From positions 4,651-68,650 of the forward strand of contig CAZUJN010000001.1 in NCBI GenBank assembly GCA_964620475.1: a DNA stretch of 64,000 nt, given 5' to 3'. Both the position numbers and the translations under genes were made by a program. Shown here one piece after another: positions 167 through 48,816 of the stretch. The stretch comes from an uncultured Candidatus Saccharibacteria bacterium. GTDB taxonomy: Bacteria > Patescibacteriota > Minisyncoccia > Phycocordibacterales > CAIZLB01. Under the pieces are notes generated by a model, which did not search any database, had not been told where the DNA came from, and saw only the letters and a program-made list of their open reading frames with translations. Numbering within the stretch: position 1 is the first letter of the stretch; each line of letters opens with the position of its first letter.

Positions 167-589
167 TTATTTTAATTCTACTGTACCACCTGCTTCTTCG
201 ATTTGTTTTTTCAAAGCCTCAGCATCTTCTTTTTTCATACCTGCTTTAACTGGTGCTGGTGCGCCATCAACCATATCTTTAGCTTCTTTTAGTCCAAGAC
301 CAAGAACCTCTTTGATAACTTTGATAACTGCTATTTTGTTAGCACCACCGTCTTTTAGAACAACATCAAATGATGTTTTTTCTTCGGCTCCGGCACCACC
401 TGCTGCTGGTGCAGCAACTGCTACTGCAGATGCTGATACACCAAATTTCTTTTCTAAGAATTTTACTAATTCATGTAGTTCTAGAACTGACATTTTCTCT
501 ATAGCATCAACAACTGTTTTGAATTGAGCTGGAGTTTCTATAACTTCCTCAACTGTTGTATCTACTGTGTTTGTTGTTTCTTCGTTCAT
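167..589 (-). CDS. rplL: 50S ribosomal protein L7/L12
   Basis: 140 aa; Ala/Gly-rich hinge ([16 protein letters not shown]) and C-terminal domain [16 protein letters not shown]...GGTVELK typical of L7/L12. Confidence 0.95.
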
Positions 590-632
590 AATTTTATTTT
601 TAAATTATTATTAATTAATGAGTTGAATGTAT

Positions 633-1121
633 TTAATTCTTCTTATCTGCAATTGCATTAAGAGCCAATACAAAGCGTTGTATAGGTGAATTGATAAGTT
701 GAACAAATTGAGCTTGTAATGTCTTGAAATCTGGGATAGAAGCGATTGACATCATTTCTTCTTTTGATTTGTATTCATTATCAAATATACCACCGATGAT
801 TGAAAGTTTATTTTTGAATTTCTTTGTAAAATCCAAAACTTCACGTGCTGGTGCTAATAAATCTGTTCCATATACAACAGCTACCTCACCATCAAGTGAT
901 GGTAATTCGCCATTTATACCTAGATCAGACAATGCTCTTTTGATCAATGTTTTCTTAGCAACTCTATAGCCTACGCCAAGTTTTCTAAGTGTGTTTCTAA
1001 CCTCACTTGTTTCAGTAACATTTAATCCATGAAAATTCACGAATACCAATGTTTTTGAATCCTTAGCTATATTTGCTATATCGCCTACAACTTCAACTTT
1101 TTTATTTTTTGAAATTGCCAT
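633..1121 (-). CDS. rplJ: 50S ribosomal protein L10
   Basis: 162 aa, directly upstream of rplL in conserved rplJ-rplL order; L10-like N-terminal region. Confidence 0.85.
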   Translation of the reverse strand: MAISKNKKVEVVGDIANIAKDSKTLVFVNFHGLNVTETSEVRNTLRKLGVGYRVAKKTLIKRALSDLGINGELPSLDGEVAVVYGTDLLAPAREVLDFTKKFKNKLSIIGGIFDNEYKSKEEMMSIASIPDFKTLQAQFVQLINSPIQRFVLALNAIADKKN

Positions 1122-1241
1122 ATATTGATTTATGTTAAGTTTCTTTTAATTAGGCCAAGCATCTGCATAGGGTTTATGGCTTCAACTCTCGTTTAGCGCC
1201 ACCTATGGTATCCGAGACCGTGACATTACATTAACATTAAT
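1122..1241 (-). promoter_or_regulatory. Candidate rplJ (L10) leader / 5'-UTR region, relatively GC-rich 120-nt intergenic segment
   Basis: Intergenic segment upstream of rplJ is noticeably more GC-rich (ggccaagcatctgcatagggtttatggcttcaactctcgtttagcgccacctatggtatccgagaccgtg) than surrounding AT-rich DNA, consistent with a structured autoregulatory leader; not verified by folding. Confidence 0.3.
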
Positions 1242-3536
1242 CTAAGATTTTAGCAATAAGGTATAAAGATATAAATACTCCCCTCTTATGTATGTATATT
1301 TTCTTTTTATCAACTCATTTTCTATAACGCTCTTTAAATAAGATTTGATTTTATTTAAATTTTCATTATTTTCTATTTTTCTAATATATCTATCTTTTAT
1401 AGGCCTACTTATACTTGATAATTTAATCTCAGTAATGATGTCTTTTTTGGTTGTTGTAGAATTTATATCATAGAATTTTACAGTCTTACCGGATTCTAAA
1501 AAAGTTAAATCTAGAGTCTTATCATTATTTAATGTAATAGACTCTGAAATATTTTTATATACCGGTATATTTTCATATTTATGAGACATACTTGGATTTG
1601 AATTATTTTCTATAAACTCAACATCTATCAATTCATCTTTATTTGAATCTAATTTAAGACTATTAATATTTTTAGAAAATAAATATATCTGATTATCTAA
1701 GACTTCAAACCTAGAATTATTATCTGTCGATGTTTTTATGAAATCACTATTATCAATTGATAAAAAATCATTATCAGTCTTAATGGAAATATTTAAATTT
1801 ATAGAATCATATATTATCTTTATAAGATTGCTATGTACAGCATTAATAATACTATTGTAATTAAGTCCATTAAATATTCTAATGTCTCTTTGTTTTAATA
1901 TGTTATTAATATTTGATATTACATCTGGACTATTCATCATATTGGCGTGCAGATAATCTGTATTATTTAAATCTATATATGTAGTTGTTCCAAACCTAAA
2001 ACCTTTCATGTCCTGAACCGTTCCATCACCTTCTTTATTATACAGAGGTATATATTTATCATCTTGTTTTTTAATATCATATACAGTATCAACCCCATAG
2101 CCAACTATTTGATAAATAGATAAGTTTTCTGGATATATAAGATTGTCTATCTTTTCATGAAAATCTCTAGCCTTATTAAGTAAATAAGTATTTAACTCCG
2201 GATAAAACCAAGAATTTATTTTTTTATAGGATAAATATTTATCTGATGGTAATAATATATACGCTGTATACATATTAACACCCAACTTTTTTGCTATTTC
2301 AGATTTTAAAATAAGACCAGAAAGAATAGATTGACTATGTCCATACATCAATGATGTTATAGCTTGCGGTGTTCCATACTCAGGCATTGCAACAAAAATG
2401 ATGTTATCTATCATATATGATAGATTTTGTCTTTTTAACTCTGTAATAATATGTTTTGCTATTAAACCTCCGTTACTATGTGTGATTATAGTCACCTTTC
2501 CCGTTTTAGATGTTTTCGATAAAGATATTATCTGATCCACGAGATTTAACTCATCGGTTAATCTCCAATCATAAGGTATAATTTTATAGTCATTTATATA
2601 ATGATTAGTCTTTAATCTGTTTAAATAATCAATAAATTCTTTATGAAGACTTTTATCTATATATGGTATAGATAAAAAAATATTGGTTATATCTATAATA
2701 TCTTTGGTGTAAATATTATATAAACTATTTCCAAAATTATCTAAAAATAATTTTTTAACATCGGCATTTCTATTTGGTTCCCAAAGTTGATTATTATCTA
2801 AATAAAGCCTACTAGACATAATACCTGGTATAAACATGATATTCGAACAACAACTTTTATCTAATATGTTTGAGCTTGAAGAAAATGAATTTATTTTAAA
2901 ATTACCAGAGATTTTATTTATACCTTGGAAATAATTATTCTCAGCATTTGTCTTCATTGAATTTGAATTTATTGCAACTTCATTATATTCAAAATCATTG
3001 TAATTTATCTCTGCAAGTTTGGATGAATTAATATTTACAGCAGTATCATTATTTTTAAAAAAATTATTCTTTAAATAAATGTTTCGGGTACCAAAAAAAT
3101 ATAAAGCATCTTTGTAACCCTCTATTTGAGATGAGGACATAAAAAAATTTGTACCAGAATTTACAAAGAAAAACATATTCGAATTGTTATCTACACTTTT
3201 CAGATTTTCTATATCGACATCACTCATAGATGTAGATATATAATGATCAAGATCAAATTCTGCATGACGAATAGTCAAGGTTGATCTTTCTATATTTATC
3301 ATCTTATTCTGAACTCTATTATATGTACCATGTAACACCGAATTGTTTATTTTTAAACTTCCATTATAAATATTTAAACAACCATTATCAAAAACCACCT
3401 CAGTATTATTTATGGTTAAATTATCACCGTTTAGATTTATACATTCTTTAATTATTTGTTTTTGATCCCAAATAATATTTTTTGAATATACTGGTATGTG
3501 AAATATTATAAAAAATAATAATAAAAACTTTTTCAT
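1242..3536 (-). CDS. Secreted protein: signal peptide + N-terminal parallel beta-helix (Asn-rich PbH1-like repeats) + C-terminal alpha/beta-hydrolase lipase-like domain (ITHSNGG nucleophile-elbow motif, LCAT/PGAP1-like)
   Basis: 764 aa; MKKFLLLFFIIFHIPVYS signal; repeated N-x-N/F strands; GxSxG-type motif THSNGG with downstream Asp/His candidates. Confidence 0.55.
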   Translation of the reverse strand: MKKFLLLFFIIFHIPVYSKNIIWDQKQIIKECINLNGDNLTINNTEVVFDNGCLNIYNGSLKINNSVLHGTYNRVQNKMINIERSTLTIRHAEFDLDHYISTSMSDVDIENLKSVDNNSNMFFFVNSGTNFFMSSSQIEGYKDALYFFGTRNIYLKNNFFKNNDTAVNINSSKLAEINYNDFEYNEVAINSNSMKTNAENNYFQGINKISGNFKINSFSSSSNILDKSCCSNIMFIPGIMSSRLYLDNNQLWEPNRNADVKKLFLDNFGNSLYNIYTKDIIDITNIFLSIPYIDKSLHKEFIDYLNRLKTNHYINDYKIIPYDWRLTDELNLVDQIISLSKTSKTGKVTIITHSNGGLIAKHIITELKRQNLSYMIDNIIFVAMPEYGTPQAITSLMYGHSQSILSGLILKSEIAKKLGVNMYTAYILLPSDKYLSYKKINSWFYPELNTYLLNKARDFHEKIDNLIYPENLSIYQIVGYGVDTVYDIKKQDDKYIPLYNKEGDGTVQDMKGFRFGTTTYIDLNNTDYLHANMMNSPDVISNINNILKQRDIRIFNGLNYNSIINAVHSNLIKIIYDSINLNISIKTDNDFLSIDNSDFIKTSTDNNSRFEVLDNQIYLFSKNINSLKLDSNKDELIDVEFIENNSNPSMSHKYENIPVYKNISESITLNNDKTLDLTFLESGKTVKFYDINSTTTKKDIITEIKLSSISRPIKDRYIRKIENNENLNKIKSYLKSVIENELIKRKYTYIRGEYLYLYTLLLKS

Positions 3537-3595
3537 GAATAAATATTTTACTCATGATATGTAAAATAAATCAGAAGAAATTATAAAAAACAAAA

Positions 3596-3640
3596 ACCCA
3601 TCATTAAGTTATAATGATTAGGGTTTTTGAGGATTGTGAA
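3596..3640 (-). terminator. Probable terminator hairpin downstream of pilin gene
   Basis: Imperfect hairpin ccc-atcatt...aatgat-ggg flanked by T-runs on the minus-strand transcript. Confidence 0.4.
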
Positions 3641-3651
3641 GTTAATTTATA

Positions 3652-4092
3652 CTAAAATCCACAAGTTGATCCACTTATAGCAGAAGATGTTGCCGCAGCA
3701 GCACCTGTTGAATCAACACAGAAGTTAGATTTACCGCCAATAGCATTCTTCAAAACAGCTGAAACAGCCCATGATGATGAAGCGGTAGCATAACAAGTAA
3801 CTGTAGTTTTTGATTGAGCTGATGTAATTAGAGGCTTAAGACCACCTGTACCAGAGTTATTGAATATACCCGCTGAACACGCTGTGGCTGTAGCACCATA
3901 ATCATTGTTCAATGAATAATATAACTCAGCCTGTGCTCTCATATTTGATAGGGTTGACTGTATAGCCGCATCTTCACCCTTACTTCTTGCTGAAGATAGT
4001 GAGGCTAACACTATACTTGAAAGTATACCGATGATAGCGATCACCACCAATAGCTCGATAAGTGTAAATCCTTTTTTGTAATTTTTCTTCAT
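3652..4092 (-). CDS. Type IV pilin / pseudopilin (prepilin-type N-terminal cleavage-methylation domain)
   Basis: N-terminus MKKNYKKG|FTLIELLVVIAIIGIL is the canonical class III signal (G-1, F+1, E+5) followed by hydrophobic helix; 146 aa, C-terminal Cys pair. Confidence 0.9.
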   Translation of the reverse strand: MKKNYKKGFTLIELLVVIAIIGILSSIVLASLSSARSKGEDAAIQSTLSNMRAQAELYYSLNNDYGATATACSAGIFNNSGTGGLKPLITSAQSKTTVTCYATASSSWAVSAVLKNAIGGKSNFCVDSTGAAAATSSAISGSTCGF

Positions 4093-4232
4093 ATTGTTGA
4101 AATTTAAATTTAAATTTTTAATTAGTTAAACAAATTAGCTAATATTGTCTTTTATTAATTTGTTAAAATAAAAGATACATATATTATACCCTATATAATT
4201 TTTTTGTGCAACTTTTTGTGTGTATAAATACT

Positions 4233-8740: not shown

Positions 8741-11700
8741 TTATGTCAACTCTAAAGCAAGCCTTGACATCTTTTCATAACCTTCAGGTGCCATATTATA
8801 AACAAAATTTTCAACCTTTATACCTCCTCTTATATTTTGTCCAGCTGAAAATATTTTATATTTTCTCTTAAAATCTTCAAAAGATATTAGTTGTCCATTA
8901 TCATAAGCCACTTCTGCAAAATCTCTAAATGCCTTTATGGCATCACCGCCATTTTGTAGTATCCAATATTCTACACCTATACCACCAAGTCCACCTTGTT
9001 GACCATTTTCTCCTAAGCCTTTTTTATAGCACCCAGCTTCTTTAAGTTTTTTCTTAGCAAATCTTATATTTGTAAGCACATCTAACAGTTTTTCTCTGCC
9101 ATAAATCCTCTCTATCGAGTTATACTTTTCATGAAGACCACTATGAGCATCGAAGGTTGCAGAGTCAGATTTTTTGACGAAACCTATATCTACCGTCATC
9201 TTATGACCATCCATCTCTAATTCTTTAGATCTAAACATTCTCATGCCCTTATTTTCATAAGAATCATTCTTTTCAAATATTGATTCGATGCCAATTATAA
9301 GATTATTCACCTTACTCCAATCCTTATCATCTAATTTAACAGCAAAATCAAAGTCAAACTTTTCATCCAAAGCCGAACCTCTTCCTGTTGATCCTGTATC
9401 GGTTATAATAGCCCCAAGTAAACTATCATCATATTCTCCTTTATGGAATAAAATATTATTTTCCTCTAGTAATGATTTTATCTTATCTATTAACTTATCT
9501 TTGACTCTGGTAATAGACTCTATATTTCCTTCAGTTTGTTTAGATTCTAATATTTTTTCATGTTTTTTCCATTCATCAGATAAAGATATAACTTCTTTTG
9601 ACTTACGTGTTCCGGCAAAAGTTTTCTTATATCTATTAAAATCATCCAAGGTGAATGTAACTTTACCTTCTGCATTACATATTGGTATATAAAAACCTTT
9701 TTGAGCTATGAAATATTTTACATTTTCAAACCCCTCACCATCTATACATATAGCATCTATATTAGTGGAGCCGAAACCTGTTCTTATTCCATAATGTTTA
9801 TTATTAATAACTCCGGTTTTAAATATATCTAATTCATCTTTTTTAAATTGTTCTTTCTGCTTTAATATCAAATACATATCACCATAACCCGTAAAACCCT
9901 CTTTCAATGCTTCACTTTCAAATATAGATAAATCAGTATCAAAAGGGGTTGAATCACTAGATTTTGCAGTTGATTTTGCATTATCGGTTTCAGCACCAAT
10001 GAACTCAGGAGAATAAACACCTTTATCCAGATAAGTATCTATAAAATTAGAAGAGATACCTTTAATCATATCACCCTGTTTTATTTTTATAACACCTTGA
10101 CTTGAATTTAATATATTTCTTTGATGAGCATTTTGCTTATATTCATCCATCTTTTGCAAAGCTTGTTCAACTGAACCTATATCAACCCTTCTTAAAAAAG
10201 CCTGTTCAAACCTAGAAATAATATCTGAGCCTTCTTTTACACCAAAGGCTTGAGATATGGATTCCAATTCTGACTTTAGAGTGTTATCGGACAAATTATC
10301 TTCTATCTCTAAACTATATCTACCTATATGGCCAGATAATACATTAATTTTCTTTATGAAAAATTTAATCTTTTGTCTTTCTTCATCCGAAACAGATTCA
10401 CCTGATTGAAAGCGTGATATAACAGACCTATTTTCAGATAAAAATTGTAAATATGAATACAGGTTTTCATCGCAACTGGCTATATGTGATCTTAATAAAT
10501 CTTTAAATATAATCAATCTTCTCTTTGAATTATCTTTAACGTTTTTCAAAGATTCAACCTTTGATCTATTCACACCAAAGTCTAATTCTTTATCACCATA
10601 CATCAATTCAAAAACTTTATACTGTTTACCCACAAGAGGTATATTGTTAGACAGAAATATTTGTTCTATACCACCCAAAACCTTCTTTGCTTCTTCGATA
10701 TTTTTATATTTAGCTAGCATTGGTATTATCTGATCAGATAAATTTTTCAATTCAGCCGACTGTGATTCAGTCATAATCTTAAATAAATCAATATATCTTT
10801 GCTGTTCAGGAGTGAATGAAAAATCTTTCGAGTTTAAAAGATCTAGAGGACAAGACTGTATTGCTGAATTAAATAGATTATTCAAATCTTCTTCATCAAA
10901 AACATCAGAATATTTATTTCTTATAAAATATATATTAATCACACACCGTAAAGGTTCTTTTACGATTATAATATTTAAGGCCGATCTCTTTTGTTGTTTA
11001 TCTAAAGTAAATTCATATTCTTCTGTGAGGATATTTGGGTAACAATTTAAAACATTATTAAACATAATATTTTCTTCATCTTTAGAAAGTACTATACCTT
11101 TTTCAGATAAAACCTTAGAAACATAATTAAAATTTATGAATGAATTATTTATTATATTATAATTATTATTCATAATACCTTTTTTGATATCACCAATATC
11201 AAAAGTTTCTAAACCCCTAGATGTATTATTTCCAAAAGCTTTATTGGACAAGGTAATCAAGTCAATATCTTTATCTGAATTAACCCAATCAGAATAATCC
11301 TTGATTTTTTGTAAATAATCTTCAGAAGAACCCATTACTCTAATATTTTCATGTATATCTAATCTATTAATAATATCAATAAACCACTTATAATCATTCC
11401 CAAAACTTTTATATACAGTTTTAGATATTGACCTTATCTCATTGAAATTTATATAGATTTTATCTTTAAAACCTTTGAATATATCTATAAATATATTGAA
11501 CTCTGTTTCGCTCAAAGTGTTCAATTCATCAAGATAATATTCGAGATTTTTGTAGCCTAAACCCTCTAAAGAGTCTATCTTATAGATTAAATCATGATTA
11601 AATTTATCGATTTTCTTCAATTCATACGAATTAGTCATTCTAATATAACCCTTTTTGACTAGATAAATTAATAAATCTATTTTATTACCATCTAATGTAT

Positions 11701-12751
11701 TAAATGTTTCAAATACCTTATCATAAGAAAGATTATTGAGTGAATAATTTTTATTTACGAACTCTTCTTTTATTAAATCCTGCAAACGTATATCATAATT
11801 TGATATTTTATTCACAAATAAAATAAAATCATTAATTTTTACTTCTCTAATATTCTTAAAAAAGACTTGCGCTTTGATCAGATTCTCTTCATTTATAATT
11901 TTTACCAAATCTTTTAAATAGTAAAAATCATTGTTCTCGAACTTAAATTTTATATATTTATTATTTATTAATATTTTCAATTGTTCTGATGATATATCGT
12001 CTAGATTGTATAGACTAAATTCATTCATTTCTCTATATACACCAGATTTATCAATAATCCTTATTTTTTCAATAGTATTTTCATCCACTCTATCAAAATT
12101 AAAAGTATGACGTATATCAATTTTCATCAGACATTCTAGAGAGATATTATTTTTTTTATTAAAAGAGTAAATTTGATTAGTTTTTTTTATTAAATCTTCT
12201 ACACTATAAAAATATTTTAATTCCCTTTGTTTGGAAGAAACCATCTTTAACAATTTCGCACCCTCATCATTTAACGGAAACTCAGCAAAATGTACCCCCC
12301 ACAAGTTATGAGATACCTTTTTCTTCTCAAACTCAGCTCTTAAATCTTCTTTGTTTTCTATATCCAAATTATCCAATATAAACTCAATTGTCTTAACCTT
12401 TTTTCTGTTTTCACCAAATCTATCACTATATGATTCAATAGTACTATTTATTCCTTTAGCTACACCCTCTAAAACCCTCTCTCCAAGTTTTTTTAACCTA
12501 TCTTTAAAATTCAGAGTATCTTTTTTTATAAGATCAAATTCACGCTCATACCCTCTTTTCTCTTCTTCGGATAGGTTTTCATCATTCAACAATGACTCGA
12601 TCTTCTGATTTGTTCCCTCTATATCATCAATAGTATTTTCCAAACCTATCACTGACTCATGTAGACGATTATTTATCACATCAGAAGCTACCTCTTTTTC
12701 GGTATCATTTATTCCTGTCTCATTTTTAATTATATCTCTTTCATCCTTCAT
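8741..12751 (-). CDS. Giant (1336 aa) mostly low-complexity K/E/N/I-rich protein with C-terminal polymerase-beta-superfamily nucleotidyltransferase domain
   Basis: C-terminal region has hG[GS]...D.D motif (IITDTGSTGRGSALDEKFDFDFAV) and downstream third-Asp strand (KMTVDIGFV), followed by a helical domain (GGLGGIGVEYWILQNGGD). Confidence 0.6.
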   Translation of the reverse strand: MKDERDIIKNETGINDTEKEVASDVINNRLHESVIGLENTIDDIEGTNQKIESLLNDENLSEEEKRGYEREFDLIKKDTLNFKDRLKKLGERVLEGVAKGINSTIESYSDRFGENRKKVKTIEFILDNLDIENKEDLRAEFEKKKVSHNLWGVHFAEFPLNDEGAKLLKMVSSKQRELKYFYSVEDLIKKTNQIYSFNKKNNISLECLMKIDIRHTFNFDRVDENTIEKIRIIDKSGVYREMNEFSLYNLDDISSEQLKILINNKYIKFKFENNDFYYLKDLVKIINEENLIKAQVFFKNIREVKINDFILFVNKISNYDIRLQDLIKEEFVNKNYSLNNLSYDKVFETFNTLDGNKIDLLIYLVKKGYIRMTNSYELKKIDKFNHDLIYKIDSLEGLGYKNLEYYLDELNTLSETEFNIFIDIFKGFKDKIYINFNEIRSISKTVYKSFGNDYKWFIDIINRLDIHENIRVMGSSEDYLQKIKDYSDWVNSDKDIDLITLSNKAFGNNTSRGLETFDIGDIKKGIMNNNYNIINNSFINFNYVSKVLSEKGIVLSKDEENIMFNNVLNCYPNILTEEYEFTLDKQQKRSALNIIIVKEPLRCVINIYFIRNKYSDVFDEEDLNNLFNSAIQSCPLDLLNSKDFSFTPEQQRYIDLFKIMTESQSAELKNLSDQIIPMLAKYKNIEEAKKVLGGIEQIFLSNNIPLVGKQYKVFELMYGDKELDFGVNRSKVESLKNVKDNSKRRLIIFKDLLRSHIASCDENLYSYLQFLSENRSVISRFQSGESVSDEERQKIKFFIKKINVLSGHIGRYSLEIEDNLSDNTLKSELESISQAFGVKEGSDIISRFEQAFLRRVDIGSVEQALQKMDEYKQNAHQRNILNSSQGVIKIKQGDMIKGISSNFIDTYLDKGVYSPEFIGAETDNAKSTAKSSDSTPFDTDLSIFESEALKEGFTGYGDMYLILKQKEQFKKDELDIFKTGVINNKHYGIRTGFGSTNIDAICIDGEGFENVKYFIAQKGFYIPICNAEGKVTFTLDDFNRYKKTFAGTRKSKEVISLSDEWKKHEKILESKQTEGNIESITRVKDKLIDKIKSLLEENNILFHKGEYDDSLLGAIITDTGSTGRGSALDEKFDFDFAVKLDDKDWSKVNNLIIGIESIFEKNDSYENKGMRMFRSKELEMDGHKMTVDIGFVKKSDSATFDAHSGLHEKYNSIERIYGREKLLDVLTNIRFAKKKLKEAGCYKKGLGENGQQGGLGGIGVEYWILQNGGDAIKAFRDFAEVAYDNGQLISFEDFKRKYKIFSAGQNIRGGIKVENFVYNMAPEGYEKMSRLALELT

Positions 12752-31832: not shown

Positions 31833-34800
31833 TTATTTTTCTTTTACATCTGGATTAACACGACAGATTATCGAGGTTGTTATCGGAGAAGGAACCAAAT
31901 TTGTTCCAGAACATTTTAATGTATACTTCTGATTTGTTGTTAAACCTGAAACAGTTTTACTTCCACCGCTGGCACCATCAGTAAGTGTTATTGGATAAAC
32001 AGTTGAATCACCTCCGCCAATATTTATATTCCAACCACTAAGATTACATGATGATCCTGAAGGGATGTTTGATATATCCCATGATATTGTACAGTTACCA
32101 TTTTTATTTAATGAAACTTTAGGGTCTTTAGATAGATTAATAACAGGAGGATTAACAACTGTATTATTACACTGAGGTGAAGTGTCCCCTGGCTGACAAC
32201 CTGTTACTGTTGTTGGAGTATATGAACATGTTTTAGAAACAATTTTTCCATCATATAAATCCTTAAGTTCAACAGTCATTGAATCACTTGTTGTTGGTAA
32301 TGCTTTTGTATATACATATGAACCATCTTTGTTTGTGGTTGCAACAAGTGTACCATCTTTCCTGTATTCAACATTACCCAACGTTGTTTTTCTGTCTGGT
32401 GTAAATGTATATGTTAGATTTGTATCACTTGAAGACATAACACAATATGCATTAAAAGCACAAGCAGGATCATTTGTAACTTTATTTACCTGAACACCAT
32501 TTTCTTTATAGACCATATCTCTACCTACACAAGAATTAGTTTTAGTCACCGTTGGGGGTGTACAGGTTGTTCCATCAAAATATCCCATCCAATCACCTGT
32601 TGGGTCTGAACATGTACCAATTGGTTTACATGTTTTACCTGCATCCATAAGATTCTTAAAGAAAGGTGCTATATTTCTGTATTTACCACCATCACTACCA
32701 CTAGGTATATTATATCGAGCTGCTGTAGGTGTGTAAGTACTATCATATCCATCTGAATCAATTTTTGACTGAAACTCAATCTGATAAGGTGAAATACCTT
32801 CCCCATCTAATTTGTACACACTCCAATCACTATTATTAGAAACAGTTGTGGGTTTAACAAGCTCAGGATCATAACAGGTTGCCTCATCAGTCAAACCAGC
32901 TTCTATTATCTTATAAGTTGATGTCCAGCTTTTAGTATCATCACCTCTATTATCTAATCTAAATGTTATAGTACAATTACCATCATATTTCATACCAGGA
33001 ACGTTTTCTTTTTTACCGCCATATCTATAAAGGTTTTTAGAAGCATATTCAGGTGTTAAACCACTTATATCACCATATATTCTATTATCCGGCTGACCAA
33101 ACATAAATCTAAATATTGGATATCTAATCATCTTCCATGAACCAAGTTGTTCAGCTACAACATAAAATCTTTTATTTTCTGTTATAGATGGTCTAGTATC
33201 AGATGTATAGCCAAGATATTTACATATATTTATACTTTTATCATGCCAAGCAGCCCTGTCTGTACCATCTATATTATAAAGAGGAGAAAAAACCTTAGAA
33301 CCAGCTATAAAAGTATTCCTAAGCTCTCCATCAGTACAAAAACTTCTGTCTAAGATAGAATCAACATTACTCTCAAAAACATCTCTTGTTGTAGCAACAG
33401 AACGACACACATCAGAAGACATCTTTCCAGCTTCTACTATTTTTAGATAAACTCTATCATAATCAGTGTCATCTCCTTGATATTTTGTATAAACAGTAAC
33501 ATTACATCCCCCATTATATGTCGCATAATTAACATTTCTCTTTCTTCCACCCGGGTCAAAAGTTATTGTTTTAGATTCATTTTTAACAAATCTATATATA
33601 TGAAATCTCTTATATGTCCAACCAGATCTACCAGAATCAGATATAACATAAAACGGTGATCCGTTGTCTATGGTACCAGCTATTGTTGAACATATATTTA
33701 TACTTGCACTTATAGGCCCACCTGTACTACCTGTACCAGGAGCAGTTATATCAACGACTTCACCAGAAGAAAAATATTTTTTTGCTCTAACATCTTCAAC
33801 AGTACAAGCGTCTCTCAAGAATCTATTACATGCCCATTTCTTAACAAACCACTCATTTGTAGCCGAATCTTCTATACACTCATTGGTTGGTTTAGTGCCA
33901 CACACCTCAACATCAGTAAGAGCTTTAACAGAATGAGCTCCAACAAAAGCAACCGAGGACATCAATAATATCATTAACATCATCAATGATTTTTGTTTTT
34001 TCTTTTTAAAAACCATAAACACTATTATTAGTAATAATATCAATACGGACAGGATCATATAATATATTTTATTTGAATTTACATGTGTAATGTTAACAGT
34101 TTTTGTTTTTGTTAAAATAATACTTCCGTCTTTATCAAGTATATCAACCTTTACCAAGACTTCACCGACCATATTTTTCAACACCTCAACTCTTTCATTC
34201 ACATTTATTGTACCTTCTTTATAAAAAGTTTTATCTATTTCCTTTTTAAAAATCTCTTTTTCATATTGAGAAACAGAAATAACAACTTTATTATTTTCTT
34301 CTTTTTCTAATTTTGATTCATATCCAATATTTGCATAAACATCTAAATCCTCAACCAATATTTGTGTATCAGTAAAATTATAAGCTGAATTAGATAATAT
34401 AAATTTATAATCAACAGATATCTTTGGATAATTAGTTGATGTTATTTTTAATCTATATTCTCCACCATTTATATTCAAAGGCACCTTAATATTCAACACG
34501 TTTTTGGTGAAAGAAACCGCTTTAAAAAAGTTTTTATTTTTTTCTAGATATTTATCAAACTCATCTGGTTGTTTTTGAGGATTTGGGGCCTTTGTCTTAG
34601 GACTAGATGCTGACCAAACGGTGTTATTTTGGACATCAAACACTTCTATATTCAACTCTGGCTCAACCACTTCATAATCAACCCCATCCTGAGCTATTAA
34701 TTTTACAAAAAGATTTGACCCTTTTATTAAATTTAATTTTTCATTAAAAGTAGTAAAGGAATCAGAACTTATTTCCATGTTATCAGTAGAGTACACAACA

Positions 34801-34877
34801 GACTCTTCTGCTTTAATGATTTTATTACCAATAAAAAAACTTAACAATAAAATCAAAAATAAAATATTTTTTTTCAT
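31833..34877 (-). CDS. Large (1014 aa) secreted/surface protein: signal peptide, ~240-aa domain, TM/second signal-like segment (~aa 275-320), then long Cys-rich Thr/Asn/Gly-rich extracellular region
   Basis: MKKNILFLILLLSFFIGNKIIKA signal; hydrophobic YYMILSVLILLLIIVFMVF-KKKKQKS-LMMLMILLMSSVAFVGAHS; many Cys in C-terminal 700 aa. Confidence 0.5.
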   Translation of the reverse strand: MKKNILFLILLLSFFIGNKIIKAEESVVYSTDNMEISSDSFTTFNEKLNLIKGSNLFVKLIAQDGVDYEVVEPELNIEVFDVQNNTVWSASSPKTKAPNPQKQPDEFDKYLEKNKNFFKAVSFTKNVLNIKVPLNINGGEYRLKITSTNYPKISVDYKFILSNSAYNFTDTQILVEDLDVYANIGYESKLEKEENNKVVISVSQYEKEIFKKEIDKTFYKEGTINVNERVEVLKNMVGEVLVKVDILDKDGSIILTKTKTVNITHVNSNKIYYMILSVLILLLIIVFMVFKKKKQKSLMMLMILLMSSVAFVGAHSVKALTDVEVCGTKPTNECIEDSATNEWFVKKWACNRFLRDACTVEDVRAKKYFSSGEVVDITAPGTGSTGGPISASINICSTIAGTIDNGSPFYVISDSGRSGWTYKRFHIYRFVKNESKTITFDPGGRKRNVNYATYNGGCNVTVYTKYQGDDTDYDRVYLKIVEAGKMSSDVCRSVATTRDVFESNVDSILDRSFCTDGELRNTFIAGSKVFSPLYNIDGTDRAAWHDKSINICKYLGYTSDTRPSITENKRFYVVAEQLGSWKMIRYPIFRFMFGQPDNRIYGDISGLTPEYASKNLYRYGGKKENVPGMKYDGNCTITFRLDNRGDDTKSWTSTYKIIEAGLTDEATCYDPELVKPTTVSNNSDWSVYKLDGEGISPYQIEFQSKIDSDGYDSTYTPTAARYNIPSGSDGGKYRNIAPFFKNLMDAGKTCKPIGTCSDPTGDWMGYFDGTTCTPPTVTKTNSCVGRDMVYKENGVQVNKVTNDPACAFNAYCVMSSSDTNLTYTFTPDRKTTLGNVEYRKDGTLVATTNKDGSYVYTKALPTTSDSMTVELKDLYDGKIVSKTCSYTPTTVTGCQPGDTSPQCNNTVVNPPVINLSKDPKVSLNKNGNCTISWDISNIPSGSSCNLSGWNINIGGGDSTVYPITLTDGASGGSKTVSGLTTNQKYTLKCSGTNLVPSPITTSIICRVNPDVKEK

Positions 34878-35382: not shown

Positions 35383-36600
35383 TTATGCAGTCATTAATCT
35401 TTTCTTTGATTGATAAACAAATGTTCCAACCGCAGTTAATATCAATACCATCGTAGCAACCATATAATGTATCCAAGATAGAGATAGACCTGTTGCAGGA
35501 AGATCTCCTAGATATACACCTGACACAGGAGTACCTGATGATATTTTTTGTGTAAATATACCTGATACTGGTGACCCTGATGATATAGAAGATGTATATC
35601 CTGAATAGTTATTTATGTAAGTTGAACAATTTGCTGTTGTTGATCTACCGTTTGAATATACTGTTACCTGTGCATTTTTAGCACCAGCATATGAATAGGT
35701 TTTGTTTATAGCCTGATCATTACCATATAAACTGTCTGTACCTGACCAATAATATGAATAGTTACCATTTCCACCATTCACATTAACCCTCCAAGTAACT
35801 GTTTGATTTATACCAGCATTTGATGGATTAGCATAACATGTTGCTGATAAATTATCATTATAATAATTATCGTTCTCAAATGTAACATCACATGTTTTTG
35901 TAACAGTCTCTTGACCTGATCTTATTGTAACAACAGCTGTTTTAGTACCAGTAGTATATGAGGTAAATGATGTAGCAGAATATGAAGAATAATTCACATC
36001 ACCACTCCAAGAATATGTATAGTTACCAACACCACCTGATGCATAAGCTGTAGCTGTAACAGTTTGACCAACTTTAGGGTTTGAAGGAACTATATTACAA
36101 TAACCAGTTAGATTTACGTGTGTTGGGTTATAAACAACGGCATTACCTCCTGGGTTTGTATAAACATAAACGTTGTTATTGTTAATGTTGTTGTTTATGT
36201 TTGTGCTTGAAGCAACAGCAGTAGCTGTGTTTTTATTATTATTTTTGTTGTTATTCTTATTATTGTTTTTTACAGAAGTGTTTGAATATGAAGGTGTTGC
36301 TGATGTATAAGGGTTATAACCTGAGTAACCAGCGTAATAAGAATATGGCATAGAATATGAACTATATGATGGGTATGAGTATGAGGAATATGAAGGATAT
36401 GAGTATGTAGGTGTGTATGAGTATGATGTATAAGGAACATAATCAGTATAACCACCAGAAGTAGTCCAACCAGAACCAGAATTCCAACTATCTGTACCAT
36501 ATGAACCTGTTGGTCCAGCAAAAGTAACAGTAGGAAACATAAATACAGCAAAAACCGCAGTAAATATTAGTTTTTTAGTTTGTGTGTTTGTTTTTAACAT
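35383..36600 (-). CDS. Cell-surface protein with N-terminal signal peptide, Tyr/Ser-rich (SYSYPSYSSYSYP) and (NNNK)n repeats, Ig-like repeats, and C-terminal LPATG sorting signal + hydrophobic helix + KKR tail (sortase substrate)
   Basis: C-terminus ...DLPATGLSLSWIHYMVATMVLILTAVGTFVYQSKKRLMTA. Confidence 0.7.
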   Translation of the reverse strand: MLKTNTQTKKLIFTAVFAVFMFPTVTFAGPTGSYGTDSWNSGSGWTTSGGYTDYVPYTSYSYTPTYSYPSYSSYSYPSYSSYSMPYSYYAGYSGYNPYTSATPSYSNTSVKNNNKNNNKNNNKNTATAVASSTNINNNINNNNVYVYTNPGGNAVVYNPTHVNLTGYCNIVPSNPKVGQTVTATAYASGGVGNYTYSWSGDVNYSSYSATSFTSYTTGTKTAVVTIRSGQETVTKTCDVTFENDNYYNDNLSATCYANPSNAGINQTVTWRVNVNGGNGNYSYYWSGTDSLYGNDQAINKTYSYAGAKNAQVTVYSNGRSTTANCSTYINNYSGYTSSISSGSPVSGIFTQKISSGTPVSGVYLGDLPATGLSLSWIHYMVATMVLILTAVGTFVYQSKKRLMTA

Positions 36601-38225: not shown

Positions 38226-39908
38226 ATGAATGTAATCTTTGATGAAGAAAAAAAGAATCAACAACTAAAACAAATGAGACAGGACGAAGATGAAAGACTT
38301 GTTCAGATGTTATCGGACAGATATTCTATACCCTATATAAATCTCTCTACTTTTTCTATAAACACAGACGCATTAAGATTATTAGATCAAGAAATAGCCA
38401 AAAAATCAGAATGTGTAATATTTGATATAGTTGGTAAAAAAATACACCTAGCAATATATAACCCCTCAAACGAGTCACTCGAGGATACAGTTGATGGACT
38501 AAAAAGAAAAGGATATGAAATAATTTTTCACATAGCTTCTAAGTTTAGCTTGGATAAAGCTTATGCTTTATACAAAGATTTATCTTTTGCTGTTGAAACA
38601 GAGGCTGGGTCTCTTGATATATCAGACGATGAAATAGAAGAACTTGTTGAAAAAACAGAAAACCTAGAAGATATAAAGAAGTTTTTAACAGAGGCATTAC
38701 AAGAAAAAAAGAGTCATAAACTTTCTAAGTTGTTAGCTGTTATAATGGCTGGAGGTCTTGCCACAAAAGCTTCTGATATACACATAGAAGCTGAAGATGG
38801 TTTCTCTAAGTTAAGATATAGAATAGATGGTGTTTTAATAGAAGCAACACAATTTGATTTAGATACATATCATTCATTGCTTTCTAGATTAAAACTTTTG
38901 TCAGGCTTAAAACTAAATGTAAAAGATAATGCACAAGACGGAAGATTTACTATTAAAATATACACAAATGATATAGAGATTCGTGTATCTACAATACCCG
39001 GATCATATGGTGAATCAATAGTTATGCGTATATTGAATCCAAAATCTATATCTTCAGGTTTAGAAGAACTTGGTTTTAATAAAAGACTTTACGATATAGT
39101 TATAAAAGAAATAAACAGACCAAACGGTATGATACTTTTAACAGGTCCAACCGGTTCTGGTAAGACAACAACACTATATGCTTTCTTAAAAAAGACAATG
39201 TCTCCTGAATATAAAATCATAACCATAGAAGATCCTGTTGAATATCATTTACCAGGTATAGTTCAAACACAAGTTGATGAGAAAAAAGGTTATACCTTTG
39301 GCGAAGGATTAAGATCTATAGTTAGACAAGACCCTGATATTATATTAGTTGGTGAGATTCGTGATGGAGAAACTGCTCAAACAGCAATACAGGCCTCACT
39401 CACAGGTCACCTTGTTTTTTCAACACTACACACTAACAACGCTGCCGGAACTTTTATAAGACTTATAGACTTAGGTGCTGATCCAAAAACACTCACCTCA
39501 TCCCTTCATTTAGCTATAGCACAAAGATTAGTAAGAACTCTTTGTCCAAAATGTAAACAATTAAAAGACATAGACGAAAAACAAAATAAAATAATACAAG
39601 AAACCATAGATTCACTTGAAGGATATGAGGAAAGAAGTGAGGTAACAGAGATACCAAAACAACTTTATGCCGCAGTTGGTTGTGCCGAATGTAACAACAC
39701 AGGATATAAAGGGCGTGTTGGTGTTCATGAAGGAATATTATCTACAGAAAAGATAGAACAAGTTGTATCATCAAACCCTAGTGAGAGAGAAATAAAAGAA
39801 GCTGCTTTAGAACAAAAAATATTAACAATGAAACAAGACGGTGTTTTGAAAATATTAAAAGGAATTACCACATTAGACGAGCTAGAAAGGATTGTTGATA
39901 TATATTAA
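38226..39908 (+). CDS. pilB: Type II/IV secretion-system ATPase (PilB/GspE family; type IV pilus assembly ATPase)
   Basis: Walker A LLTGPTGSGKTTT, Asp box, His box, CPxC...CxxC tetracysteine (CPKC...CAEC) typical of GspE/PilB. Confidence 0.85.
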   Translation: MNVIFDEEKKNQQLKQMRQDEDERLVQMLSDRYSIPYINLSTFSINTDALRLLDQEIAKKSECVIFDIVGKKIHLAIYNPSNESLEDTVDGLKRKGYEIIFHIASKFSLDKAYALYKDLSFAVETEAGSLDISDDEIEELVEKTENLEDIKKFLTEALQEKKSHKLSKLLAVIMAGGLATKASDIHIEAEDGFSKLRYRIDGVLIEATQFDLDTYHSLLSRLKLLSGLKLNVKDNAQDGRFTIKIYTNDIEIRVSTIPGSYGESIVMRILNPKSISSGLEELGFNKRLYDIVIKEINRPNGMILLTGPTGSGKTTTLYAFLKKTMSPEYKIITIEDPVEYHLPGIVQTQVDEKKGYTFGEGLRSIVRQDPDIILVGEIRDGETAQTAIQASLTGHLVFSTLHTNNAAGTFIRLIDLGADPKTLTSSLHLAIAQRLVRTLCPKCKQLKDIDEKQNKIIQETIDSLEGYEERSEVTEIPKQLYAAVGCAECNNTGYKGRVGVHEGILSTEKIEQVVSSNPSEREIKEAALEQKILTMKQDGVLKILKGITTLDELERIVDIY

Positions 39909-40171: not shown

Positions 40172-41179
40172 ATGTCAAGCGACCTAAATAACATCAAAAA
40201 TAAGGCTCCAGAAGACAAGGTTTTGGACCAAACACTCCGACCTTCTTCTTTTGATGAATATATAGGACAAGAAAATATAAAGAATAACTTAAAAATACTT
40301 CTTCAGGCTGCAAAAGGTAGAAACCATGCACCAGAACATATACTTTTTTATGGTTCACCAGGTTTAGGCAAGACAACTTTAGCTTATCTTATAGCAAAAG
40401 AATTAGGTGTTCAAATGAAAGTTACATCCGGACCGGCAATAGAAAGAGTTGGTGATCTTGCGTCGATATTAACAAACCTTTCACCGGGAGATATTTTGTT
40501 TATAGATGAGATACATAGATTAAACAAAGCTGTTGAAGAGATACTCTACCCCGCCATGGAATCAGGACAAATGGATATAATAGTTGGAAAAGGACCAGCA
40601 GCAAGAACAATACAATTAGAATTACCACCTTTTACATTAATAGCAGCGACAACAAGAGTTGCGATGATATCATCACCTCTTAGGTCTCGTTTTTCTGGTG
40701 GGGTTTTTAAATTAGAATTTTATAATAACAAAGAAATACAATCTATAGTAGAAAGATCTGCTAATATTTTAAATATAAAACTTGAAAAAAATGCAGCAAA
40801 ATACATAGCAGATAGAAGCAGAAAAACCCCAAGAACAGCAAACTATTTATTAAAAAGATGTCGTGATTTAGCTCAAGTTTATGAAAAAGATTTAGATGAA
40901 GATATAGTTATAGAAGCTTTAAACATGATAGGAACAGACAGTGTTGGTTTAAATAAATCAGATATAGATCTTTTAGAAATTATAATACACAAGTACAACG
41001 GTGGTCCTGTTGGTCTTTCAACTATAGCAGCCTCTTTATCAGAAGATGAAGCAACCATAGAAGATTTCAATGAACCATATTTAATACAGTTGGGTTTTTT
41101 AGACAGAACACCTCGCGGTCGTGTTGTAACAAAATCAGCTTATGATCATTTAAATATTACTTATACAAAAAATGATTAA
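40172..41179 (+). CDS. ruvB: Holliday junction branch migration ATPase RuvB
   Basis: LRPSSFDEYIGQE, Walker A GSPGLGKTTLA, DEIHRL. Confidence 0.95.
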   Translation: MSSDLNNIKNKAPEDKVLDQTLRPSSFDEYIGQENIKNNLKILLQAAKGRNHAPEHILFYGSPGLGKTTLAYLIAKELGVQMKVTSGPAIERVGDLASILTNLSPGDILFIDEIHRLNKAVEEILYPAMESGQMDIIVGKGPAARTIQLELPPFTLIAATTRVAMISSPLRSRFSGGVFKLEFYNNKEIQSIVERSANILNIKLEKNAAKYIADRSRKTPRTANYLLKRCRDLAQVYEKDLDEDIVIEALNMIGTDSVGLNKSDIDLLEIIIHKYNGGPVGLSTIAASLSEDEATIEDFNEPYLIQLGFLDRTPRGRVVTKSAYDHLNITYTKND

Positions 41180-41684
41180 AAATAACAAAAAAATAATTTT
41201 ATCTATTGATCCTGGTTTTGAAAGGTTAGGTATATGTATTTTGGAAAAAGATTATAGTTTATCAAACAAAAATATAAAAATTATTTATTCGGAATGTTTC
41301 AAAACATCAAAAGAATTGGTTTTTGAGGAGAGGTTGTTAAATATAGGTAAACACATAGAATCAATAATAAAAAAACATAAACCAACAGGTTTGGCTATAG
41401 AAAACCTTTTTATGACAACAAATCAAAAAACTGCCTTTAGGGTTTCTGAAGTTAGAGGTGTTTTATTATATATATCAAAAATCAATCAAATGAATGTTTT
41501 TGAATATACCCCTCTTCAAATAAAATCCGCCATAACAGGTTCTGGCAAAAGCGACAAAACGGCGGTTCAGAAAATGTTATTGATTTTATTACCTGAATTA
41601 AAGAATTCAAGCAAAAAAATAGATGATGAGTATGATGCCATAGCTTGTGGATTAACACACTTTGCATTAGAGAAAAGATTATGA
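41172..41684 (+). CDS. ruvC: Holliday junction resolvase RuvC
   Basis: IILSIDPGFERLGICILE N-terminal catalytic Asp region; 170 aa; overlaps ruvB stop. Confidence 0.85.
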   Translation: MIKNNKKIILSIDPGFERLGICILEKDYSLSNKNIKIIYSECFKTSKELVFEERLLNIGKHIESIIKKHKPTGLAIENLFMTTNQKTAFRVSEVRGVLLYISKINQMNVFEYTPLQIKSAITGSGKSDKTAVQKMLLILLPELKNSSKKIDDEYDAIACGLTHFALEKRL

Positions 41685-41699
41685 TTAAATATTAAAATC

Positions 41700-41981
41700 A
41701 TGCCAAAGAAAAAAGATCTAAATATACAACAACCAGTAGTAAACAATAACGAGGATGAGTTGCAAGATGTTTTGTCTTTAGGTGATTTAGGTATAGATTT
41801 AGGTGACGATGATTTACTCATAACAACAGAAGAAACAATAACTGTTATAACAGAGGAAGATGAAGAATTATTAGAAGATGAAGAATTTTTACTCGGCTAT
41901 AATAAGAAAAAAAATAAAAAAAACAGTTCTGAAGAAGACGATATAGAGGATTTTGATAGTTATTTTTATCAAGAAGAATAA
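41700..41981 (+). CDS. Small highly acidic hypothetical protein
   Basis: 93 aa, D/E-rich; no motif. Confidence 0.35.
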   Translation: MPKKKDLNIQQPVVNNNEDELQDVLSLGDLGIDLGDDDLLITTEETITVITEEDEELLEDEEFLLGYNKKKNKKNSSEEDDIEDFDSYFYQEE

Positions 41982-41997
41982 ATGTTACTATATATAC

Positions 41998-44445: not shown

Positions 44446-44686
44446 TATCTTTGTTTAAAGATTTTAAAGATTGATTTAGTTTATTAAGATTTAGAAATAA
44501 AACAAACTTTTTATTAGAGTTTGTTTTTATTTTTATTTTATTTTTATTTAAAAATATCTCATTGCTATAAATATCTATACTAGTATTATTTTTAATAATA
44601 TTTAATATATCATTAATTAGTTTATCAAAATCTTTTTTTTGATTTTTAATGTCTAATATGTTTGATAAATCTTTTATATTCTTCAT
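44429..44686 (-). CDS. Small hypothetical protein downstream of dnaN
   Basis: 85-aa AT-rich ORF; weak. Confidence 0.2.
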   Translation of the reverse strand: MKNIKDLSNILDIKNQKKDFDKLINDILNIIKNNTSIDIYSNEIFLNKNKIKIKTNSNKKFVLFLNLNKLNQSLKSLNKDIILEL

Positions 44687-44694
44687 ATAAATAA

Positions 44695-45819: not shown

Positions 45820-45925
45820 TTTTCTTTTTTTATTTAATTATACACAATACAGACTATTATGTCTGTGGATATCTTGATAACTGTATTATATGCATATAAC
45901 ACAAGGTTTTATTGTTTATAGATCA

Positions 45926-46082
45926 TGTGGATAATATTGTGGATATATGTGGATAAATAAGGTGTATAACTTTATATATGTGGATATATCTATATTAATT
46001 AACATTTTATACAGTATTTATACAAAGATATACAATATATATCAACATATTTATACATATATTATACACTTGATATCCACTT
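45926..46082. promoter_or_regulatory. oriC-like region: cluster of DnaA boxes (TGTGGATAA at 45926-45934 and 45948-45956; TGTGGATAt at 45938-45946 and ~45979-45987; aTATCCAC at ~46072-46080) with very AT-rich unwinding-element-like tract 45990-46070
   Basis: Exact matches to TTATCCACA consensus read on both strands, between dnaN and dnaA. Confidence 0.7.
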
Positions 46083-46097
46083 ATTTATACACAATTA

Positions 46098-47465: not shown

Positions 47466-47492
47466 GTGGATAAATTATATACCTGTGGATAA
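47465..47492. promoter_or_regulatory. Two DnaA boxes (TGTGGATAA at 47465-47473 and 47484-47492) in dnaA promoter/upstream region
   Basis: Exact 9-mers read from sequence. Confidence 0.65.
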
Positions 47493-47540
47493 CTTTTTTT
47501 ACCTTGTTTTTTTTATAAAATAATGTATATTGTTTATATT

Positions 47541-47693
47541 ATGTCAGTAACATATCAACCTAAAAAAAGAAAAAGAGCAAAAAAGCATGGTTTTCTATCT
47601 AGAACAAAAACACATGGCGGAAAGAGGGTTTTGCAAGCTAGAAGAAGAAAAGGTAGAAAAGATCTATCAAAAGTTGTAAAAAAAGTTAAATAA
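47541..47693 (+). CDS. rpmH: 50S ribosomal protein L34
   Basis: 50-aa [53 protein letters not shown], too short for the ORF track; canonical rpmH-rnpA order. Confidence 0.85.
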
Positions 47694-47728
47694 TTCAATA
47701 AAACCTTATAAAATAAGGATTTTAAGTT

Positions 47729-48007: not shown

Positions 48008-48021
48008 ACTATAATTTATAT

Positions 48022-48756: not shown

Positions 48757-48775
48757 TGAATTGTATCTAATAATA

Positions 48776-48812: not shown

Positions 48813-48816
48813 GGAA

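Follow-up and report, generated by a model that had tools for sequence, protein, structure and literature searches.

The closest described counterparts of the protein examined here are the animal enzymes LPLA2 (lysosomal phospholipase A2, PLA2G15) and LCAT of the PF02450 family, which have structural disulfides. The protein, which we call the lipase, resembles them in its Ser-Asp-His triad, which aligns in the same order, in a PYDWR motif, and in a signal peptide with secreted or luminal placement. It differs from them in that it shares only 11-17% identity, falls below the Pfam threshold and has no Cys for the animal disulfides. The animal enzymes, for their part, lack the N-terminal beta-helix and the C-terminal sandwich and helices that are fused to the lipase domain here. 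The family is also bacterial and nearly confined to Patescibacteria, and it adds a bacterial branch to a fold whose best-known members are human enzymes of lipoproteins and lysosomes.

Other described systems share parts of the lipase. Pseudomonas aeruginosa uses a T6SS to deliver the phospholipase effector Tle4 (PDB 4r1d), whose immunity partner is Tli4, whereas the lipase has a Sec signal and neither an immunity gene nor T6SS genes nearby, its neighbours encoding TruB, a pilin, L10 and L12. The lipase gene is moreover core and syntenic rather than accessory. The nearest known counterparts of the beta-helix are pectate-lyase-fold surface proteins of the CASH/NosD type (phage tailspikes, depolymerases, and the adhesins PfbA and SRRP); compared to these, the helix of the lipase is short and joined to a lipase-type domain, and no lyase or hydrolase catalytic residues were identified in it. 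DUF7379, DUF676 and PGAP1 resemble the lipase in the surroundings of its nucleophile elbow (aa 332-392). Literature searches on LCAT in CPR bacteria and on beta-helix lipases in Parcubacteria turned up no account of this family.

Protein and domain layout

The lipase is encoded in the window, by which we mean the whole 64-kb stretch of DNA that was analysed. A homologue search returned 690 homologues, the best non-identical one at E 5.6e-174, and we therefore conclude that the ORF is a genuine gene; it encodes a secreted enzyme. The window holds no paralogue. In an alignment, the N-termini of the homologues consist of MKK followed by a hydrophobic core and an A-x-A-like end. A lipoprotein or a C-terminal membrane anchor was ruled out, as the signal region has no lipobox Cys and a scan of the whole protein found no second hydrophobic or transmembrane segment beyond aa 1-19.

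Table 1. Features of the lipase gene and its surroundings, in window coordinates.
Feature	Position	Strand	Remark
rplJ; rplL	633..1121; 167..589 (span 167..1121)	-	downstream of lipase gene
Lipase-rplJ spacer with conserved structured leader (putative)	1122..1241	-	covariation
Lipase gene, ORF	1242..3536	-	764 aa
C-terminal helical bundle, aa 693-764	1245..1460	-	AF2 helices 697-763
Beta-sandwich domain, aa 565-692	1461..1844	-	AF2 strands 570-688
LCAT/LPLA2-like alpha/beta-hydrolase domain, aa 228-550	1887..2855	-	
His530 codon, predicted triad base	1947..1949	-	pairs with LCAT His377 in QHLNM
Asp504 codon (GDG), predicted triad acid	2025..2027	-	pairs with LCAT Asp345 in GDDTV
Ser354 codon, predicted nucleophile in THSNGG (aa 352-357)	2475..2477	-	pairs with LCAT Ser181 in GHSLG
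PYDWR motif, aa 321-325	2562..2576	-	pairs with human LCAT PYDWR (P143-R147)
Right-handed parallel beta-helix, aa 20-215	2892..3479	-	AF2 strands aa 20 to 211
Sec-type signal peptide, aa 1-19 (MKKFLLLFFIIFHIPVYSK)	3480..3536	-	single strongly hydrophobic 19-mer of the protein
Intrinsic-terminator-like hairpin and T-run after pilin	3585..3628	-	read from sequence
Type IV prepilin gene, 146 aa	3652..4092	-	PF07963, TIGR02532
Promoter-like site TGCACA-16-TATAAT upstream of pilin	4183..4210	-	10/12 matches, consensus scan only

The AF2 model of the lipase has a mean pLDDT of 87.6. Its N-terminal part is built of stacked three-strand coils, as expected of a PF13229 (NosD/CASH) beta-helix, and is richer in Asn than the full protein (18.9% vs 12.7%). 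The catalytic domain is the best conserved, with a mean identity to homologues of 53%, as against 20-28% for the flanking domains and 20% for the beta-sandwich. Within the helical bundle, R746, Y747, Y754 and L757 are near-invariant in the homologue alignment.

When modelled separately, the C-terminal module (sandwich and helices) reached a pLDDT of 86.5, and a Foldseek search of the PDB gave nothing significant for it (E 0.01 at best, with a probability of 0.21). Fold matches to the DnaK substrate-binding domain and to CBM9 were dismissed as noise. When the C-terminal 205 aa were compared as a single sequence with 1.8 billion representatives, six weak matches came back; four of these are fragmented into 4-10 short pieces and seem to reflect composition, and hence there is no sign that the module is shared with other enzymes.

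Catalytic core and its kinship to LCAT and LPLA2

A profile of the lipase family finds LCAT among PDB sequences at E 5e-6; a direct phmmer search with the lipase gave chance matches only, the link being seen with the profile. In the resulting alignment, from which we counted the LCAT numbering (R147, S181, D345 and H377), Ser, Asp and His follow one another in the LCAT order at positions homologous to S181, D345 and H377, and PYDWR lies ahead of the nucleophile. None of the 92 aligned homologues departs from S354, D504 or H530. The same 92 sequences have Y322, D323, W324 and R325 without exception and P321 in at least 90%; P321 is invariant in a 35-sequence alignment. The best 12 Foldseek matches are all LPLA2 or LCAT, and the predicted structure has the overall fold of these enzymes, including the cap and membrane-binding parts. 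Taken over structure and profile searches, the best matches of the catalytic domain are LPLA2, LCAT, Tle4, PlaB and lipases, with no carbohydrate esterase among them. By alignment and predicted structure, the catalytic core falls in the structural class of LCAT and lysosomal phospholipase A2.

The Pfam searches add a nuance to this assignment. The window lipase itself has no PF02450 match at E <= 1, and does not reach the gathering threshold, whereas 24 of 35 homologues match at E <= 1e-3 (best E 1.6e-21); membership in PF02450 therefore comes via the family and not from the window sequence alone. DUF7379 (PF24096) is found at E <= 1e-3 in each of the 35 homologues tested and scores 26.9 bits on the window lipase against a cut-off of 33, and PGAP1 (PF07819) scores 17.5 bits against 24.3, over aa 332-390 only. 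Like that of DUF676, these matches to the window lipase are below cut-off and cover about a third of each model, and judged on them the similarity is a general alpha/beta-hydrolase likeness, not membership. The Cys residues of the lipase lie only at 32, 53, 229 and 230, none of them inside the hydrolase core, making the LCAT/LPLA2 disulfides impossible.

Most of the original prediction for the protein held up. It had described a 764-aa protein with a signal peptide, an Asn-rich beta-helix and a lipase-like domain of the LCAT kind, all of which we recovered, and had been made to depend on a hydrolase triad, of which a complete Ser/Asp/His set aligns with that of LCAT. The THSNGG-bearing hydrolase domain is present, but it is central (aa ~228-550) rather than C-terminal, being followed by the sandwich and the helices. 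As for the label "LCAT/PGAP1-like", the first half is borne out by profile and fold, and the second is not: a PGAP1 or GPI-deacylase reading was rejected because the sub-threshold match is restricted to the nucleophile elbow.

Pilin and ribosomal protein genes beside the lipase gene

Relatives of the lipase occur in at least 470 species genomes; with one strict peptide pattern as the probe, the gene was seen in only a minority of patescibacterial species. Genomic context was read from 88 fetched homologue loci, representing 80 species loci; the names of these 80 are almost all those of Patescibacteria-group MAGs, with a few listed as "bacterium" and two as "Bdellovibrionales".

The gene upstream encodes a canonical prepilin, as had been proposed. 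It lies 115 bp from the lipase gene on the same strand, and matches PF07963 N_methyl (E 2.4e-10, 40 bits vs a cut-off of 21.2) and TIGR02532 (E 3.4e-10). Its leader, MKKNYKKG/FTLIELLVVIAIIGIL with KKGFTLIEL, has G(-1), F(+1), E(+5) and the hydrophobic helix. It is the sole pilin-motif ORF of the window, and the PilB-type ATPase that had been placed at 38226..39908 is there (PF00437, E 7e-119). What did not survive is the expectation that pilin and lipase co-occur in relatives: they adjoin in 12 of the 88 fetched loci (L001-L005, L009-L012 and L015-L017), corresponding to 7 of the 80 species loci, all of the closest clade. In relatives at 25-32% identity, the place upstream of the lipase is taken by L19, a PG_binding protein or TruB, and the pilin is absent beside it in all 73 more distant species loci.

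The pilin also has features of a gene expressed on its own. Its promoter-like site recurs unchanged in L009, a conspecific locus, and an A-run, a GC stem and a T-run follow the pilin in L001, L002, L004, L009, L010, L011, L015 and L017, with differing stem sequences. Because L001 and L017 are one contig, these eight loci yield seven distinct pilin-lipase gaps, and a terminator-like hairpin folded in all seven, which make up the folded set; the gap of a ninth locus with the pilin, L012, is 889 nt long and lies outside it. Between conspecific strains the variable domain of the pilin is swapped, whereas the lipase is 99% identical. Judging from these sequence features, the pilin is a separate transcription unit inserted in this clade, and neither co-transcription nor co-occurrence marks the two genes as an operon.

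The conserved partner of the lipase gene lies on its other side, and was absent from the original prediction. Of the 80 species loci, 49 have the rplJ-rplL pair, encoding L10 and L12, right beside the lipase gene, and the adjacency is kept even though L10 identity drops to about 50%. The lipase is thus genomically tied to ribosomal protein genes and not to the adjacent pilin, and the pilin association is not the interesting part of the locus.

Proposed role and the lipase-rplJ junction

Computation gives the fold, the triad, the export signal, the distribution and the gene order; substrate, reaction and role are what we infer from them. On balance, the lipase is probably a Sec-exported enzyme working outside the cell, a phospholipase A or a CoA-independent acyltransferase, with membrane lipids of a host or neighbour as its substrate. 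Cleavage of the signal peptide would leave the enzyme outside the single membrane of the patescibacterial cell. With His530 and Asp504 activating it, Ser354 would then attack an acyl ester of a glycerolipid at the membrane surface. A phospholipase A route would free a fatty acid and a lysolipid; alternatively, as in LCAT, an acceptor lipid could receive the acyl chain with neither CoA nor ATP being needed. The fast-evolving beta-helix and C-terminal sandwich/helix modules may serve to place the enzyme on a glycan or envelope surface, either the host's or the cell's own.

To our knowledge, Patescibacteria lack lipid synthesis. Because of this, and because the family is widespread and holds a core position at rplJ-rplL, harvest or remodelling of lipid from host or neighbour cells seems the most likely role, and the family is a candidate for the lipid-acquisition step of Patescibacteria. 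It is a concrete candidate: secreted, intact in its triad, LCAT/LPLA2-like, found across the species genomes counted above and seated beside rplJ-rplL. CPR cells show an enrichment in lysolipids, for which other bacteria are the presumed source and phospholipase A a possible route, and field lipidomics points to their uptake from such bacteria (PMC7242380).

Several other readings have to be weighed against lipid acquisition. The lipase could be a lytic weapon, a Tle-like antibacterial phospholipase that breaches or kills the host for its contents rather than its lipid. We consider this unlikely, since toxin genes are usually accessory and mobile and this one is fixed beside rplJ-rplL across deep divergence, and since no immunity-like gene or secretion-system marker was found adjoining it in the window or the homologue loci; it also overlaps with lipid acquisition, as an attack on a membrane would yield lipid too. 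A related doubt concerns the substrate. A beta-helix is a commoner partner of carbohydrate-active enzymes, and therefore the attacked ester could be on a glycan, with the helix binding polysaccharide and the hydrolase stripping O-acyl groups from capsule, teichoic acid or peptidoglycan. That the best catalytic-domain matches are all lipid-ester enzymes makes such an esterase a doubtful alternative.

The lipase might instead remodel its own cell's envelope independently of any host, turning outer-leaflet lipids into lysolipids or acylating surface molecules. LCAT-type chemistry, which needs neither CoA nor ATP, would suit this, as would the core position linked to ribosomal genes, and lysolipid enrichment in CPR cells may ease curvature stress (PMC7242380). 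The rapid divergence of the accessory domains is, however, more what one would expect of parts in contact with a variable partner, and we find self-directed remodelling quite improbable. Least probable of all is that lipase and pilin cooperate in host targeting, for example through a phospholipase delivered by or associated with the pilus. The short same-strand spacing and the recurrence of the pair in the closest relatives would favour it, and type IV pili are important for host contact in some Patescibacteria. Against it stand the absence of the pilin beside more distant relatives, its own promoter-like site, the structurally conserved hairpin and T-run in the gap, the swapping of its variable domain beside a near-constant lipase, and the fact that the lipase signal is of the Sec and not the prepilin type. 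The proposal that the lipase is a host-membrane factor accordingly keeps its target, membrane lipid still being the most plausible, and loses the pilin as an argument for it.

Returning to lipid acquisition, a more detailed version can be put forward as a tentative idea that may well prove wrong. On this view the family would provide lipid-auxotrophic Patescibacteria with their lipid-harvesting enzyme: a CoA-independent phospholipase A or transacylase of the LCAT type would work outside the cell, stripping acyl chains from host membranes or transferring them, and would give rise to the lysolipids in which CPR cells are enriched. Its expression would be coupled to that of rplJ-rplL, with membrane supply keeping pace with ribosome synthesis.

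The junction between the two genes bears on this last point. A scan of the 1122..1241 spacer found no terminator-like site between lipase and rplJ, and a promoter-like site at 1275-1247 falls in the 3' end of the lipase gene; the rplJ promoter may thus overlap the lipase 3' end, and the adjacency of the two genes may be historical. Covariation is what points to a structured leader in the spacer. A conserved stem reads CAUAGG/CCUAUG in the window and AGAAGG/CCUUCC in other loci, and compensatory double substitutions occur at four of the six predicted consensus pairs, each in 1 to 9 of the 22 loci. The single-sequence fold z-score of the leader is only -0.84, and Rfam has no match to it, even at E <= 10 with the spacer alone. 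Further along, the scan placed a terminator-like site at 119-153, 3' of rplL.

LCAT-type catalytic core in a predicted exported protein

We found the pilin, the 764-aa ORF with its THSNGG motif (aa 352-357) and the PilB-type ATPase all present, as the original prediction described them, and we asked what kind of enzyme the ORF encodes. Taken alone, the window protein gave only sub-threshold Pfam matches around the nucleophile elbow (DUF7379, DUF676, PGAP1), and querying the PDB directly with its sequence returned nothing. Its family was more informative. The protein matched 690 others (best non-identical E 5.6e-174), and among 35 homologues tested, all matched DUF7379, 24 matched PF02450 LCAT (best E 1.6e-21) and 11 matched PF13229 Beta_helix. 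A 92-member family profile found human LCAT at E 5e-6, pairing PYDWR with PYDWR, itHSNGGL with IGHSLGCL, dGDgtV with DGDDTV and kHanI with QHLNM. Counted along the LCAT segments as printed, in a numbering that places R147 of PYDWR, C313 and C356 correctly, the aligned LCAT residues are S181, D345 and H377, its known catalytic residues. Their counterparts S354, D504 and H530 are invariant in 92 of 92 sequences, as are F235, P237, G238 and YDWR 322-325; P321 is nearly invariant there and invariant in the 35-sequence alignment. The Ser/Asp/His triad on which the original prediction hinged is thus intact. Structure comparison agrees with the profile match: the top 12 Foldseek hits in the PDB are all LPLA2 or LCAT (E down to 2.4e-7, TMt 0.65), with PlaB, BlEst2 and other lipases scoring lower. 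We conclude that this is a predicted exported protein with an LCAT/LPLA2/Tle4-type fold. Unlike animal LCAT and LPLA2, to which it is 11-17% identical, it has no Cys in the core (its only Cys are at 32, 53, 229 and 230) and carries two extra modules.

An AlphaFold2 model from 92 homologues (mean pLDDT 87.6) contains an N-terminal hydrophobic helix (aa 3-11), a beta-helix (aa 20-211, 18.9% Asn), the alpha/beta domain (aa 232-548), a beta-sandwich (aa 570-688) and a helical bundle (aa 697-763). This order makes the hydrolase domain central rather than, as had been proposed, C-terminal. The sole strongly hydrophobic stretch is aa 1-19, and we found no second hydrophobic segment, lipobox or sortase-type motif in the sequence. 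Mean identity to the window protein over 34 homologues is 53% in the hydrolase, 26% in the beta-helix, 20% in the sandwich and 28% in the helical bundle, and longer relatives (1000-1270 aa) have additional Pfam domains. An extracellular enzyme whose targeting has diversified would be expected to look like this, with variable, surface-type modules on either side of a conserved catalytic core. Two further matches of the family profile were NosD (E 6.4e-6) and, more weakly, a phage receptor-binding protein (E 1.5e-3). When the C-terminal 205 aa were modelled separately (pLDDT 86.5), a PDB search gave no significant match, and a search of 1.8 billion representatives gave only 6 weak ones; close to the C-terminus, R746, Y747, Y754 and L757 hardly vary across the homologue alignment. 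A vicinal Cys-Cys (aa 229-230; window 2847-2852, minus strand) lies directly before the hydrolase domain (CCSNI/VLF-PG); most homologues retain the pair, and a few, e.g. P0027, P0030 and P0035, have it replaced.

Distribution and genomic position in Patescibacteria

The gene is widely distributed in Patescibacteria and occupies a core genomic position. When one genome per species was scanned, at least 470 had a relative, a lower bound because a single strict peptide pattern was used. The 80 loci listed come almost entirely from MAGs named as Patescibacteria (Parcubacteria or Paceibacterota, Moran-, Taylor- and Liptonbacteria, and numerous TPA assemblies labelled 'uncultured Candidatus Saccharibacteria'), with a few named only 'bacterium' and two 'Bdellovibrionales'. 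The closest relatives and gene order of the TPA MAGs labelled 'Saccharibacteria' or 'Bdellovibrionales', including the conspecific one (L009, 99% identity), are Parcubacteria- or Paceibacteria-like, and these labels look unreliable.

Features of the lipase neighbourhood and the pilus ATPase in the window
Feature	Coordinates	Strand	Basis
Pilin	3652..4092	-	ORF + PF07963
764-aa lipase	1242..3536	-	ORF
L10	633..1121	-	ORF
L7/L12	167..589	-	ORF
PilB-type ATPase	38226..39908		PF00437, E 7e-119

In the window the minus-strand order is class II RNR, RluA, L19, TruB, pilin, lipase, L10, L7/L12. Relatives at 30-44% identity (loci L001-L005, L009-L012 and L015-L017) likewise show TruB-pilin-lipase-L10-L12. 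In those at 25-32% identity the lipase is preceded by L19 (L006, L014) or by a gene for a PG_binding_1 protein (L007) and still followed by L10-L12; L008, about 34% identical in the hydrolase region, has TruB upstream and no L10 after the lipase. Across the 80 species loci, L10-L12 lie downstream on the same strand in 41 (35 of these with a lipase-L10 spacer of 70-280 bp) and are convergent in 8 more; among the 31 lacking L10, several are truncated or have a long 1100-1200-aa form. L10 identity to the window drops to about 50% among the L10-L12-adjacent loci; the linkage therefore extends across deep divergence. The pilin did not prove to be a conserved partner in relatives, a pilin-motif ORF adjoining the lipase in only 7 of the 80. 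The ancestral order was likely L19-TruB-lipase-rplJ-rplL; insertion of the pilin would have followed in the window's clade. One MAG (CAYXZA01) encodes relatives at two different loci (L030 and L046), neither adjoining rplJ, so paralogues away from the conserved position occur in some genomes.

Proposed role

We lean towards a membrane-lipid phospholipase or acyltransferase serving lipid acquisition or remodelling. The substrate would be an acyl ester of a membrane glycerolipid, which would be hydrolysed to fatty acid and lysolipid or used in CoA-independent acyl transfer. This fits the biology: lysolipids are abundant in CPR-enriched cell fractions and are believed to come from other bacteria, perhaps via phospholipase A (PMC7242380). 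The same fold family includes Tle4, and a lytic, Tle-like weapon is conceivable, if unlikely. The beta-helix could instead direct a glycan or cell-wall esterase, a reading we consider similarly doubtful; remodelling of the cell's own envelope seems improbable, and functional coupling with the pilin very improbable. The fold and chemistry of the lipase are already known; its architecture, lineage restriction and rplJ linkage are new. No source names the protein, and our literature search found no paper connecting CPR bacteria with LCAT-like enzymes.

Predicted transcription units and other features of the window

The pilin is canonical (MKKNYKKG/FTLIELLVVIAIIGIL; PF07963 E 2.4e-10), and no other ORF in the window has a pilin motif. 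A consensus scan placed a promoter-like TGCACA-16-TATAAT upstream of it (4210-4183), and an A-run, hairpin and T-run can be read after it (3628-3585). This architecture is present, with differing stem sequences, in all eight pilin-lipase gaps folded (L001 and L017 being the same contig; a ninth locus, L012, with an 889-nt gap, was left out). Given the promoter-like site and the conserved hairpin and T-run, the lipase is probably transcribed separately from the pilin. In the spacer from the lipase stop to rplJ (1241-1122) the scan gave no terminator-like site, the only one lying after rplL (153-119), and judging from sequence, transcription of the lipase may continue into rplJ-rplL. At 1275-1247, overlapping the 3' part of the lipase gene, lies a promoter-like site that could by itself explain why lipase and rplJ stay together.

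The rplJ 5' leader (window 1122-1241, minus strand) and the lipase-rplJ spacers of L001-L072 share a structured motif, GGUC..GA.AC-CAUAGG-hairpin-AUAA..CCUAUG..GGCC. Covariation between clades is evident in the central stem (CAUAGG/CCUAUG vs AGAAGG/CCUUCC), with compensatory changes in 4 of 6 predicted pairs (1 to 9 of 22 sequences per pair). An Rfam search gave no match, L10_leader included; the motif is possibly an autoregulatory L10 leader of a Patescibacteria type.

Between the window and L009, the lipase, L10, L12, L19 and RluA are 99-100% identical and TruB 94%. Identity is complete over the promoter, leader and first ~45 codons of the pilin and almost complete over the downstream flank, while the rest of the pilin (window 3652-3960, minus strand, vs L009 3423-3893) is replaced (58% amino-acid identity, indels). 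The pattern suggests that recombination has exchanged the pilin's variable domain between strains.

Four long window ORFs, all on the minus strand, have no Pfam match at E <= 1e-3: 8741-12751 (1336 aa), 31833-34877 (1014 aa), 57776-60748 (990 aa) and 35383-36600 (405 aa). Window G+C is about 30%, and dnaN (44695-45819) and dnaA (46098-47465) lie within its lowest-G+C part (22-27%; 44000-50000), probably the replication origin region, with RuvB, RuvC and a class A PBP just upstream (40172-44445).
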